A stretch of DNA of 64,000 nt from Octopus sinensis. Its lineage: Eukaryota. Shown here piece after piece: positions 4,316 to 62,904 of this stretch; position 1 is the stretch's first letter, and each line of letters starts with the position of its first letter. The notes beneath the pieces are model-generated. The model did no database searches. It saw only the letters and a program-made list of their open reading frames with translations, and was not told the origin of the DNA. A program made the translations under genes and the position numbers. The stretch spans positions 191,890,001 through 191,954,000 of the forward strand of contig NC_042998.1 in the NCBI RefSeq assembly GCF_006345805.1. The letters are read 5' to 3'.

Positions 4316-5985
4316 GTTTACATGTGCTTGTATGCGCTTCTGTATGATCTTGTAAGTTTATATACCCATATACATCGAGTTTTATGATTTTGGATATTGG
4401 TGTAAACCTGTACCGATATGCATGAAAAATCACTAGTGTATCCATTATACATACATACACACACGCACATACACACAGATATATGTATGAATATATTTAT
4501 ATATGTATATATATGAAGATATCTATCCATCTCTCTCTCTCTCTCTCTCTATATATATATATATATATATATATATATATATATATATATATATATATAT
4601 GTATGGGTATATATATATATCACCTTCGAAACGTAGAGTAGATGAAACGATGGCGACTGAAGAAGGGGTTTTTTCCTTGTGTTATTTGTCCTGTACTCTA
4701 TTTTTTTGTTGTTTAAGAAAAATGTCCAGTTCCTTGGGTTTGTGTCTATGTTTTTGTTTCTCATTGTGTTCGACGTTTTTTTTTTTTGGTGTCCTGTACT
4801 CATATATGCGTGTATATATGGATGTAGAGGTAGGTACGTACATATATGTATATATATATGCATATATTTTATTTATTAATATATTATATATATATATACA
4901 TACATACAGAGACGGAGAGAGAAGGAAAGAGACAGAAAGAGAAGGAGAGCAGATTTTCTCGAAATTCATTAAAGTAACGTAAAGCCTGTATTTTAGATGT
5001 CACGTGTAACGTGGGTGAGAGACTCTAGTGCAGCGAAAATGTTGTAGGGAAAATGTTAGCTGAATCTAAATTGAGCACGAATCATATACTTGTCACCTTT
5101 TTCTGACAGTTGTATTATCGCCAAAATAGCTTCTTGATTTTTTTGTCTTTTTTCAGAATTTGAAGTATTATTTTATTGATATATCACAAGGAATTATATG
5201 TGCGCATATGTATGTGTGTAAATATACACACTCTCAAACATATATGCATATACATATATGACTCTCTTTCTCTCTCTTCTTAAATATATATATATGTGTG
5301 TGTACTTACAATATAGTATATATGTATGTAATATATTTATGCATATATATATTGTATTATGTATGCATATATGACGTCATAGAATAGTCCATAGCATTAA
5401 TCGAGACTTTGGAGAGTATTTGGAATAAGAGAGGGATTTTTCCTGAAGAAAGTCAGGAGACGATGCACTAATGCTTGTCCTGCTACACTAATATTTGTGG
5501 TTACCCGAACAGCTGGGTAGCCGTTCACCCTTTTCCAGTTTCATCTAGTTTCTTCATACGCCTTGCTTCGTTTCTGCCTTCCTGGGTTCCTGGCAATACC
5601 ATTTACCAGATTAGCGTGACGCTAATCTGTAATTGAATGAACATCGACCCGAACTTGTGACTGCCTGTTTTGGATTACATGTTATCAGTAGCATTTACAA
5701 CCCATATTGTTCACACATGCAAATAAATGCGCACAAACGTGTGTGTGTAAATGAGAATTGTATGATGAGGTCACAGAAGTGTGACGAAAGAACTCTGGCC
5801 GAAATAAGATTAAGATTAATGTAAAAAAATAAATAACGCTGAAACAAAGTACACCAAATATATAGTGCGTGTGTTTTTATTGGCTAAACTGGCAAAATGA
5901 CCATTCCTAAATACAACAATATCTGTCTCAACACACGATTTCACATCAAAAGTCCTGCAAAACAAATATATTAACGTAAATATAC

Positions 5986-6196
5986 ATATATATATATATA
6001 TAATATATATATATATATATATATATATATATATATATATATATATATATATATATATGTATATGTATATGTATATATATATATATATATATATATATAT
6101 ATATATATATATATATATATATAGATAGATAGATAGATAGATAGATAGATAGATAGATAGATAGATAGATAGATAGATAGAATAGATAGATAGATA
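5986..6196. repeat. (TA)n + (GATA)n microsatellite
   Basis: Direct read. Confidence 0.95.
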
Positions 6197-6258
6197 CAGA
6201 AACAATAGAAGTTGAAAATGTACTTTGAATAGTTAATATATTTCTTATTAATATTTTT

Positions 6259-6304
6259 AAACATTTAACCGGTTTCACAGTTGACACTGATTTTCAAAAT
6301 ATTC
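6259..6304 (-). ncRNA. Degenerate minimal hammerhead ribozyme-like motif (Penelope type)
   Basis: Minus strand: gaatatt TTGAAAA t-cagt-gtca-actg-t GAAA CCGG TTA aatgttt. Stems I and II pair, but the core deviates from CUGANGA and the cleavage-site register is imperfect. Confidence 0.4.
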
Positions 6305-6559
6305 AAATAGAATGACGTGGCTTGTGTCGCAGCTGTCTTGCTTCTGACCAGTGTTTGAAGCTTGCCCTATTTTTATAGGGAGTTCATGGCTCAAATTAAT
6401 ATATATTTTGAATAGGATTTCATTGGTAGAGGATAGTTACATGACTGGTCTTCGACATTTTTGTGGGTTCTCTGCTACACCCGTGCGTTAGTATCAAGTG
6501 AAATGTTTGGCGTCGTAAAGTAAGGCTAACTCCGTTGACTGAGCATGACCAAACAAGCA

Positions 6560-59365: not shown

Positions 59366-61097
59366 AGAACCATGACAGCTATAGTTCATCTTACATCTAC
59401 GACTTGATCACTGACACATTCAATGGAATAATATCAGTAACCTGCAGGAAACAGCAGTTAAATTATTCTCAAATGCGCCAACTGATTTTGAAAAGGGGGT
59501 GGGTTGCATTATATAACGTAGTCTATGACGTATAAACAGACGAGATTGTCGCAGTTAGAACCAGTTTCTGATCACTGGGTTACTCACTCAAGTTTGAATG
59601 TGCCTAAAAAATAACATCAACAATTACTAATAATGAAACAAGCCATTGACGAGAATGAGCCATCTGTGTGAAAAGTTGGTTGTAAAAATGTCCCCATTTC
59701 TGATAACGTTGAACTATGTCCGGTCGACATTATGTAACCGTTCATAGTGTTTAGTCGACGACAAAAGCATTATTTGACATCACGACTTTTGAAATGAAAT
59801 TTCACTGAAAAATTAGGAATACTTTGTTTCGACAGTCAGGATGTTCGAAATTAATGCAAGTTTCAGGAAGGCCGTATCCTAATGTAAAATCGCCGAAGAG
59901 GACTGGCTTACGTTCCAGTTAGCAGATTTAAGCTTCTGAATTCCTATCATGAACTGCAACAACTCAAAGGAATTGAAAACAGCATTAGATACAAAGAGAG
60001 AAGTTGATAACCAAATGAGTTCAACGATCTTATGACTGAGCTTATGTTGCAGATATGGGGAGGAATTCTTGTAATCTTAAGCACTCTAATTGATTACAGC
60101 TCATATTGTTTCCATGAAATCATATGAAACAAAGTTGCATTCGGTACTTATTAACTAATTATTATCGAAAATGTTAAAGACTTTATTCTTAGTGAGCAAC
60201 AAGATATACGTTATTGATATATTGTTTTAACTATAAATTTCTCCAAAGTGGTAAGTTGAAACAATAATTATGAGCAAAGGTATATGTCAGCTATAAAATA
60301 AATATTGAATTAAATCTACAAAATAAGCTAATATTTCACTGTTTAAATAGATTTTTCAAAACAAGACGGTTGATTGAGTAAAGGATGAGAATAAATACAT
60401 TATTCAATTTCAGGTCATTGTTTTGTGTTGAAATCTTGTCTTTGTATACTTAAGCTTACGTAATTCTAATGTCGATGAAATATCTATCCATAGGGAAATG
60501 TATCCAAGTTAATCAGCTACATCCTTTCAAAGTTGTAACACTATCTACAAATTAATAAACATTTCAGGTTGTCTATCCAGCATTTCAAAGAACATTTTCC
60601 ATAAATCTAAATATTTTCTGAACAATAGTAAATGATATTATAGAGCCATGTCATCACCCAATCAACTACTACTAAGGAGCAACTTCTCTGTTTCAGCATA
60701 GAGCAATCCGTAATTAACTGGTTCTCTTCGTCATTTTTATTCAGCCTAATATGGTGTAGAATTTACTTCGTAGTTGACTGATTTCACGTGCAGGCTGATA
60801 TGAATTGACTTTATCTGTCATTCCAGCAGTTCCTGTTGAATACACCTCAGTTCTCTAAATGTATGAAATATTATTATTACCATAATTGTCATGTTGCTGA
60901 AGCTCAAGTCATGAGACTCGAGTGTATCAGATGCCTAACAATATGGATTCCTTATTGGATATTCCTTTATATTAACTTAGGTATAAAAATATCCTTAAAA
61001 ATCCTTAAAATCCTTTAAAATGTTTTAGCCCAAAGGCCGCGGACATGCTGGGGCACCACCGCTAATTTATAAAAAAAATTGAAGAATAAAATATATA

Positions 61098-62060
61098 CAG
61101 TGTGTTCGGACAAAATTTAAAGATTTTTTTTCTATCCGCTTTTTTCGGGAACAGCTTGGTGTAGTGGTGAACACTCAAAGGCGTTGGAGAGCATTATGAT
61201 TACATTTCAAGCTGAGTAAAAGTGGCATGGAAGATAGGAAGTCTATCTGAATACTGGAAACGAGTTACCCGTATCAAAATGCCTACATGATGACTGCTGC
61301 CGAATGCCCTGTTTTCACTGTAAAGACTGTAAGACATGACATGAGCAGATGTAACAGAGACGACGAAACCATGACCAGCAAGAAAGGACACAACAGGCGT
61401 TCTGACGGTGCCCATACGCTGGAATTCATCCCCACATATTTGAATAGGGAGTTAGTTTCAATTCAGAAGGCTGCAACGAGGACAACGAATCCGTGGTCAG
61501 CAAGAAAATATTGATCATTGGGTATTCCTTCAATGATTGTGACGCCATGACGCTCATCATCTTTGAATAGGGCCTTAGACTCAATTCAGAAGGCTATCTA
61601 AAGTTGCTGCCGACTGGAGAAGATTACCGCGGGGAAGCTATATGTGTGGCAGTAAGGATTTGGTTCCCTGTCATACCGCCGAAAAGTTTCAGAAGTGGTT
61701 GTCGGAGAATTTTTACGACTTCACAAACCCCTCTTTCTATCATCGTAATTCCACAAATTGTAATCCCATGGATAACTATGTGTGGGGTGTGGTGAAGAAG
61801 AACTGCTCTACCTGCTGCACCAAAGTTAAGTTGGTGGTCAAAATCAAGGAGGTGATCGAAGAGCTTCCTTGGGACACAGTGAGGGACGCATGTGCCAGGT
61901 TTCAGAGGCGTCTTGAGGCCATGGTAGAAGAAGGGGAAACCGGCCACTTTCAGTACACTGTTATCTCCCAGCCATAATCTAGCTGATATGTTTTTTGATT
62001 AGGTACTATGTATTCTGTTCCTGTTATGCAAACTGTCATATTTAGCCTCAATAAAGTGTA
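61098..62060 (+). mobile_element. Tc1/mariner superfamily (DD37D/maT-like) transposon remnant
   Basis: TA|CAGTGTGTTCGG left end; ORF 61642-61977 DLVPCHT..QKWLSENF..NSTNCNPMDNYVWG..ACARFQRRLEAMV resembles QD.APCH...SPD.NP.D..VW; right TIR not recognisable. Confidence 0.75.
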
Positions 62061-62302
62061 CGAGACATTTTAACTCACAATATAGCGACCGTCTTACACT
62101 GCCATACCTCTAATGTATCATATGTATATATATATATATATATATATATATATATATATATATATATACATATAAAAGTAGGTACTGTAAATTTAGAGAT
62201 TTAGAATGAACACTTGATAAGTGCAAGCACCTGTATATGCCAGATAGTGGCAGAGGTGAGAGAATATATCAAATATAAATTAAAAACAGAACACAAAGGA
62301 TA

Positions 62303-62396
62303 TCGCGGTACAGTGTTTCAAGCTTTATAAACAATCTGTTATTACATCACTGTATTATTGATATAAAAGACGGTTTAAAGCTCTCTTCAGTCGCAA
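62303..62396 (-). ncRNA. Type-I hammerhead ribozyme, intact core with long stem II
   Basis: Minus strand: ttgcga CTGAAGA gagcttta...taaagctt GAAA C-ACT-G TA ccgcga. 8-bp base of stem II, GUA site, stem I with a core-proximal A-C mismatch; inside a (TA)n-flanked module ~62175-62535. Confidence 0.7.
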
Positions 62397-62904
62397 ACAT
62401 TGTTAGTCCAATGATTACATCACAATATAAAAAGTACACGTAGTATTACCCATTATAATAGGATTATCATATCTCTTTGAAAAAGTATATTTGTATAATT
62501 GTATAAATGTATTTGTATATATTTGTATAATTGTATTATATATATATATATATATATATATATATATATATATATATATAGAGAGAGAGAGAGAGAGAGA
62601 GAGAGAGAGAGAGAGATTCAGGCACGATAGTTTATTGTTTTCGCATCATTTTAATACGAATAACTATCACCTTCTAAAATATATATTCCACCGTTTAGAA
62701 GATTAGCAATATGTGGCCATTTTATTGTGATAAGAATCTCCTGAGAGTATTTTAAAATATTTACCTTATCGTTTTAATACGTCTATACGTCATTAATATC
62801 AGAGTGAACTTACCATTCTTAAAAGAGTGTCTGCTTTCCTCACACGAAACTGCAATCATCGAAAGCAGCTATAATTTTAAGTTTATACATCCATCACAGA
62901 AATA

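Follow-up and report, generated by a model that had tools for sequence, protein, structure and literature searches.

The 64,000-nucleotide stretch of the Octopus sinensis genome analysed here (the window; C2:191,890,001–191,954,000 in a genome of 2.72 Gb, with 35% GC and many microsatellites) holds nine short modules that carry complete, eroded or partial hammerhead ribozyme motifs. The modules are read as hammerhead-bearing 3' ends of Penelope-like elements (PLEs) together with non-coding hammerhead units, inserted by PLE enzymes, and we assign a probability of about 0.75 to this reading as a whole; that the origin and insertion of the modules are of the PLE type is, taken alone, very probable. 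Judged from the sequences of their relatives, the motifs at 6259, 12327, 47208 and 19593 lie in 5'-truncated 3' ends of autonomous PLEs, and those at 42458 and 55962 belong to families of non-coding units of 561 and about 530 bp, respectively, which form head-to-tail direct repeats. Most copies are truncated or eroded single motifs, the self-cleavage of which is only predicted.

Each window module was searched against the host genome and the best 15–20 loci were retained per family; these loci were the best of 40 scored among 128–3216 candidates, which biases the families towards close copies. The families are named by window position (F4, F6, F19, F41, F42, F47, F56 and F62), and their members in the window are as follows.

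4621–4884 (+): F4 module, 5'-truncated at (TA)n, with the hammerhead 3' half alone, GAAACGTA at 4628–4635
6196–6570 (−): F6, PLE 3' end; U3–A8 hammerhead, core 6297–6291, palindromic loop III ending at 6267
12278–12478 (−): second copy of F47, PLE 3' end; core 12363–12357, 3–8 pair broken with C3 opposite A8
19495–19669 (−): F19, minimal hammerhead in a 3' end from a second PLE family, one that is very abundant; core 19625–19619, triplet ending at 19598
41864–42168 (+): F41 module; core 5' half at 42100–42106, 3' half lost by an internal deletion of ~170 bp
42183–42405 (−): F42 unit (561 bp), its 5' part in inverted orientation up to (TA)n; same insertion as 42398–42712
42398–42712 (+): direct F42 piece; intact hammerhead, core 42464–42470, triplet ending at 42513
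47061–47298 (+): F47, PLE 3' end; eroded U3–A8 hammerhead, core 47214–47220, triplet ending at 47243
55638–56198 (+): F56, full non-coding unit of ~530–545 bp, flanked by two (TA)n tracts
62175–62536 (−): F62 module; slightly eroded hammerhead, core 62390–62384, long loop II, triplet ending at 62309

All eight positions at which the first-pass annotation had placed whole or partial motifs do carry them, each within a repeat family, and an intact motif that it had overlooked lies in F56 (core 55962–55968, an 8-nt palindromic loop III and a triplet ending at 56026). Family alignments restore full hammerheads for F47, F6, F42, F56 and F62, and show how the window copies have decayed: the F6 copy at 6259 keeps its core and the U3–A8 pair with an eroded stem I, the motifs at 12327 and 47208 are eroded copies of one U3–A8 family (the latter by A6U and changes in stem II), and the F62 copy at 62303 has an intact core, a broken first pair of stem I and one base missing from loop III. 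The F19 copy at 19593 matches its family, including U at position 6. The direct F42 piece runs from the hammerhead through two conserved hairpins (with a shared motif at 42637) to (TA)n. At the family level the canonical CUGANGA/GAAA/UH core or its U3–A8 variant is kept in F6, F47, F42, F56, F62 and F41, whereas F19 (U6) and F4 (no CUGANGA before stem II) have non-canonical cores.

The two half-motifs require separate comment. That at 42100 had been described as cut off by (TA)n; its relatives hold the core 3' half ~95 nt downstream of the 5' half, and the window copy has lost it through the internal deletion. That at 4628 is indeed cut by (TA)n, but it is not half of a canonical hammerhead: longer F4 copies contain stem II and the 3' half with no canonical CUGANGA ahead of stem II. 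One F4 relative suggests a unit of about 850–880 bp. In four F4 relatives (L122, L129, L132 and L133) the site of the missing 5' core resembles a 3' splice site preceded by a pyrimidine tract, and a degenerate core may overlap this splice-site-like stretch. Assembly of the core from two exons by splicing was considered and rejected, as inspection by eye of the longest copies gave no CUGANGA.

Abundance of the motifs and their position beside (TA)n

With a descriptor requiring a perfect core, three motifs were found in the window (42464, 55962 and 62390), whereas among 40 dinucleotide-shuffled versions 35 gave none and five gave one. With one core mismatch allowed, the window gave 14 motifs against a shuffle mean of 5 (range 1–12, none reaching 14), and given these shuffle counts eroded motifs alone are weak evidence; the motif at 6259 escaped both settings. 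In a genome sample of 100 evenly spaced 10-kb stretches from large contigs (1 Mb in total), the strict descriptor found 15 motifs, nearly all of different and mostly unrelated families, against 0–2 (mean 0.65) in 20 shuffles. The frequency thus exceeds that of shuffled DNA in both the window and the sample, and extrapolation gives roughly 39,000 intact-looking motifs genome-wide (95% interval of the count, 8–25 per Mb). An exact pattern for one hammerhead class matched the genome 11,101 times, with some double counting, against 254 matches for the reversed control. In a hand count of the first 100 matches listed, which include a few double registers, the 3–8 pair was Watson–Crick in 93 (U3–A8 in 89 and C3–G8 in four).

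These counts bear out the large, multi-family reservoir that had been proposed. The proposed density of one motif per 10 kb overstates the genome sample, in which, with matches to the window families included, there are 36 modules per Mb, or one per 28 kb, as a lower bound. More unrelated hammerhead families were noted in the sample (L235, L238, L249, L179, L188, L194, L216, L217 and L160), and many of these have loops II of 40–75 nt and differing 6-nt palindromes, which could make dimer cleavage family-specific.

The motifs might be thought chance matches in AT-rich, microsatellite-full DNA, as the relaxed descriptor yields about five matches per shuffled window and (TA)n is common. The strict counts, the genome-wide pattern count and the family alignments, which restore full cores and stems, refute this reading and leave it practically no chance of being correct.

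The first-pass annotation had also stressed that each module touches (TA)n. Tracts of (TA)5 occur at 0.5 per kb in both the window and the 1-Mb sample, and 20% of random points lie within 350 nt of one; therefore, contact with (TA)n alone means little. The association is real, however, on one side: a (TA)5 tract follows within 350 nt, on the 3' side, in 10 of the 15 strict motifs, compared with 20% of random points, whereas just three of the 15 are preceded by one on the 5' side. For the 36 sampled modules, measured from the ends of the matches, the corresponding figures are 27/36 and 15/36. The (TA)n preference is therefore borne out at the 3' end. The tracts may instead have been made or lengthened by the insertion itself, through slippage on a short TA end, rather than serving as pre-existing targets. 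The strong 3' polarity and the ends of F42 copies at internal TA-like sites of the unit are in keeping with this idea, but the 15 of 36 modules that also have a 5'-side tract are not, and about 12 of 20 F42 insertions (by eye) have TA at the left end too, as a split tract predicts. We regard slippage as an unlikely origin of the tracts.

Ends of autonomous Penelope-like elements and the A6U core

A link to PLEs had been suggested from the outset, and it holds for three families: F6, F47 and F19. Locus flanks of 1.5 kb were searched by tblastn with the proteins of one PLE group, and same-strand PLE frames were found 281–492 nt upstream of F6 in 7/20 loci and 378–502 nt upstream of F47 in 2/20 loci, with PLE frames in inverted orientation in eight F6 loci. 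When one piece of reverse transcriptase (RT) was used as the query, 8,544 candidates were obtained from the genome, some in frames of 770–920 amino acids, and a second, distant PLE group gave 14,592. With a PLE frame in 1/20 of its loci, F19 had been taken to be non-autonomous; this reading was dropped because F19 lies downstream of the endonuclease of the second PLE group in 25 of 30 loci. The PLE parents of all three families have a hammerhead near the 3' end. Within the 64-kb window itself, no PLE coding remnant was found.

The most complete element observed is an unbroken two-copy head-to-tail PLE (L283; C1665:152001–162000, −) with frames of 923 and 811 amino acids. Each copy has an RT, a Cx4CxxC linker, a GIY-YIG-type C-terminus and, ~150 nt after the stop codon, a hammerhead-like motif whose loop III palindrome is the same as that of F6 and F47. 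The last copy terminates in (TA)n. In this hammerhead variant U3 faces G8 and stem I is shifted by one base. The RT domain (PF00078) scored above its cut-off in both PLE frames scanned, including the longer frame of this locus, and RT motifs are seen in L220, a relative of the F19 parent. C-terminal GIY-YIG endonuclease motifs are visible in both PLE groups and PF01541 is annotated on many of 120 listed homologues, while the Pfam scan of the frames gave no GIY-YIG match at an E value of 0.01. A CX2–5CxxC linker precedes the endonuclease in both groups and would make the parents Neptune-type, although Nematis and Naiad share it and it is not sufficient to assign a clade. The named eukaryotic homologues of the PLE proteins are from oysters. 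A few homologues (P0031, P0046, P0066, P0076 and P0089) are catalogued under bacterial symbionts of bivalves, most likely as host contamination.

The arrangement of the copies is also of the PLE kind. Partial tandems, or pseudo-long terminal repeats (pLTRs), are represented by the two-copy element and by an upstream F19 copy in L341, and inverted copies occur in 7/20 loci of F6, 8/20 of F47 and 1/20 of F19 (1–8 of 15–20 loci over all families). A young PLE family (L281, L282, L284–L286, L288 and L293) has a 3' untranslated region (UTR) of ~2 kb, consisting of CA/TG/TA microsatellite-like sequence, before its hammerhead, and this family may spread microsatellites.

The F19 lineage has an unusual core. 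Among close copies position 6 is U in 21/21 and 27/27, and among 34 others it is U in 25. All four bases occur at position 7, and A, U or C at position 17, while most other positions are fixed; a side branch of six copies combines C4 with A6. As far as these alignments go, the pattern looks like the outcome of selection on a variant core, though it may also be explained by few founders. An alternative register of the core breaks stems I and II and was rejected. A natural A6C core of low activity is known (PMC3088659). That paper was the only one on a natural change at this position to emerge, with A6C and not A6U; the work on short-stem-III hammerheads of PLEs may already describe A6U. About 14 of 20 short F19 copies (L002–L020) start, by eye, within one stretch of ~20 nt located ~95 nt before the cleavage site; this is possibly a transcription start, in which case solo ends may propagate in the manner of short interspersed elements (SINEs).

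Non-coding units and their route of movement

The non-autonomous, retrozyme-like elements that had been postulated exist in the form of non-coding hammerhead units, F42 and F56. No upstream PLE frame was found within 1.5 kb in F42 (0/20), F56 (0/20), F62 (0/20), F41 (0/15) or F4 (0/20), and no parent element was found for F62.

Copies of F42 are 98–100% identical. Direct repeats at 555–570 nt occur in 11/20 loci, giving a unit of 561 bp and arrays of up to five units, and 5/20 loci contain two or more tandem hammerheads. Of 19 scorable loci, 18 have right ends that adjoin TA. These ends are spread over six different TA-like sites within the unit, with a bias of the query towards the later ones, and full units are joined seamlessly; inverted left pieces often end at TA-like sites too. 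The units of one array share variants specific to that array: this holds for 14/14 variants in L046 and, among 13 loci, is clear in L046, L322/L323, L329 and L309 and weaker in L054 and L055. Folded as a circle, the unit has z = −8.9, with the hammerhead absent from the best fold. These features make F42 a likely candidate for a young non-LTR retrozyme. In F56, direct partial repeats of 37–209 nt are found in 15/20 loci, and none of these loci showed a full array with two hammerheads. The loops III do not fold alone, and dimer duplexes of −6.9 to −14.1 kcal/mol are predicted for them, with just −1.7 kcal/mol for F19.

A motif 120 nt past the cleavage site, with 1,679 exact matches in the genome against none for the control, joins F42 to diverged subfamilies with a median identity of 57%. 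In eight subfamilies, chosen by this motif and the core with no filter on the stems, 32/32 pairs of stem I are kept, a value reached by 48 of 40,320 permutations, and loop III, which varies in sequence, is a perfect palindrome in six and a palindrome with one central odd base in two. Taken together, stems I and II are kept with covariation, stem II having only three pairs, with bulges. Eleven aligned copies yield a predicted structure with a long hairpin ahead of the ribozyme, an enclosing helix and two hairpins before the usual 3' end. When four predicted pairs between one half of the core and the other are set aside, the six helices contain 51 pairs, of which 92.9% are paired (39–47% in slid controls), with 52 double changes, a number reached by none of 500 shuffles; as the helices were scored on the alignment that predicted them, with copies related to one another, the figures do not amount to probabilities, which tempers their value for our reading. 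The sense strand folds better than the antisense strand in seven of the eight subfamilies.

According to our reading, a PLE protein would nick (TA)n, and reverse transcription would be primed inside the RNA 55–200 nt downstream of the hammerhead; early stops of copying, or double priming, would leave short single modules, most of them presumably inert. For F42, an array of two or more units would be transcribed, two hammerheads would pair their palindromic loops III and excise one unit, and the unit would be ligated into a structured circle. The PLE RT, primed on (TA)n, would then circle round the F42 RNA from any of several priming sites and produce seamless, internally clonal arrays. We consider this circle route for F42 to be evenly poised between right and wrong.

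Sequencing runs presumed to be of RNA give no more than hints, as individuals differ; no run listed as containing the sequence is on record as RNA. Of three such runs compared with F42, one (X2) has a contig, at a depth of 163, that spans the unit and returns to its start; its hammerhead is unchanged, and several of its variants occur rarely or not at all in the 752 contigs of the largest run. In a second run (X5), low-depth contigs show 15 A-to-G places clustered over the hammerhead region (L048:1434–1812) and not seen in the largest run, a pattern to be expected from hyper-editing of the sense strand by ADAR.

A number of observations count against our reading. For F42, F56, F62, F41 and F4 neither a parent nor a helper was found, and with flanks of 1.5 kb searched and a 3' UTR of ~2 kb in one PLE family, F62, F41 and F4 could be ends of long elements. 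Among 20 loci, no F42 insertion ends at the cleavage site. The number of F42 pairs with double changes, 17, is reached by 11 of 500 shuffles, and the F56 fold is modest (z = −2.7). The runs were seen as contigs whose RNA nature is presumed, and a head-to-tail contig would also fit an array transcript or DNA; F56, in four such runs, gives short, varied contigs with no closure of a full unit. In the literature, just one of nine Xenopus dimers cleaved, and hammerhead mutants of a Poseidon PLE had no effect on insertion in vitro (PMC11167929).

The last of these results also speaks for the main alternative, in which PLE proteins move every module, even those of F42 and F56, by copying linear read-through transcripts that have not been cut. 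Tandems would then arise by template jumps or local duplication, and the hammerheads would be rarely cutting passengers. This alternative would account for the spread of F19 and F4 despite their U6 and missing canonical core, for the ends that avoid the cleavage site and for the clonal arrays, which can also arise by local duplication. It does not explain why the core, stem I and the loop III palindromes have been kept by compensatory change across subfamilies only ~57% alike, why free variation in F19 relatives is confined to positions 7 and 17, as it is in a functional hammerhead, or why the F42 period stays one unit despite differing priming sites. We therefore regard it as possible but doubtful.

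A different retrotransposon associated with (TA)n, such as an RTE or Dong-R4 long interspersed element (LINE), might have moved the non-coding units in place of PLEs. Recent activity of RTE and Dong-R4 has been listed for an octopus genome (PMC13282606), and comparison of the F42 superfamily with the ends of 75 PLE loci of two groups gave no link, its sole match lying on the opposite strand beyond the (TA)n end. However, PLEs are marked by partial tandems, inverted 5' copies, internal 3' ends and type I hammerheads (PMC8557442), the non-coding units share such traits with the proven PLE ends found here and their 3' ends join (TA)n directly, with no poly(A) tail, so that a LINE is a quite improbable source.

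If our reading is extended, the octopus genome would hold a superfamily of viroid-like RNA circles of 560 nt, old yet still active, with a fold that covaries beyond the hammerhead; the pair of hairpins before the main 3' end would be a recognition signal for the PLE RT, the arrays would record (TA)n-primed rolling-circle reverse transcription, and a very abundant PLE lineage would have a functional natural A6U core, probably protein-assisted. This wider proposal is put forward tentatively, and we would not expect all of it to hold.

Other repeats accompany the modules in the window. One SINE-like repeat occurs in tandem copies of 184–190 bp at 8285–8834 and 33092–33466, with more copies near 10.2 kb. 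Frames at 11643–12176 (+) and 61579–61977 (+) resemble the C-termini of mariner/Tc1 transposases. Rfam gave no hammerhead among the 150 of 173 window matches listed, nor on the 561-bp F42 unit, and its microRNA matches in the window were dismissed as microsatellite artefacts.

Comparison with known hammerhead-bearing elements

The literature covered, which leaves most subscription papers outside its scope, gave no description of these families or of cephalopod PLE hammerheads; a squid genome paper reports 235 Rfam hammerhead hits, and the word ribozyme is absent from a 2026 octopus repeat annotation. The closest known motifs are the minimal, short-stem-III type I hammerheads in the pLTRs of metazoan PLEs (PMC4209133), for which a massive dispersed population with U3–A8, an extra base after A9 and palindromic loops has been described. 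The octopus motifs resemble them in being thousands of dispersed copies of many families, in the opposite-strand pairs of nearby motifs and in the small number of copies inside full elements. Unlike the hammerheads described there, many octopus families have loops II of 30–95 nt and palindromes of 6–8 nt, and one large lineage has U at position 6.

The (TA)n bias and the tandem or inverted insertions of endonuclease-bearing PLEs are likewise on record (PMC8557442). Compared with the Neptune- and Nematis-type PLEs treated there, one family here has a microsatellite-rich 3' UTR of ~2 kb, and the clade of the octopus elements is read from the linker alone. In Poseidon PAc of Anolis (PMC11167929), as here, the targets are AT-rich and RT starts internally, downstream of the hammerhead, at several sites; PAc starts at sites without homology to the target, whereas the ends of F42 lie at TA-like sequences within its unit, a sign that the RNA may pair over a short stretch with the target.

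Retrozymes have been proposed as passengers of PLEs (PMC7229834; bioRxiv 10.64898/2026.07.22.740005). With the animal non-LTR retrozymes of these sources F42 shares non-coding head-to-tail units, each with a type I hammerhead, a range from monomers to multimers, low GC content and the proposed circles and PLE helpers. It differs in its 561-bp unit, against the typical ~300 bp, in its dispersed short arrays, in PLE-type (TA)n ends and inversions that are shown directly, in covarying helices outside the ribozyme and in the lack of pLTR homology to the 75 PLE loci compared, unlike many retrozyme families of Xenopus.

The role of PLE hammerheads and the movement of retrozymes as circles with PLE enzymes are questions that the cited literature itself poses. 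For these questions the octopus genome offers near-identical natural F42 dimers, unbroken PLE frames, a simple (TA)n target and a covarying candidate for the priming-end signal, together with the natural contrast of intact, A6U and lost cores in one genome. By extrapolation, a single animal genome would contain tens of thousands of intact-looking hammerheads, undetected here by Rfam models. In conclusion, abundant minimal hammerheads, the U3–A8 pair, the (TA)n bias and PLE-derived retrozymes have already been published and the overall arrangement is not new; less ordinary are the F42 superfamily, with its structured RNA, and the A6U core that a very abundant PLE lineage has retained.

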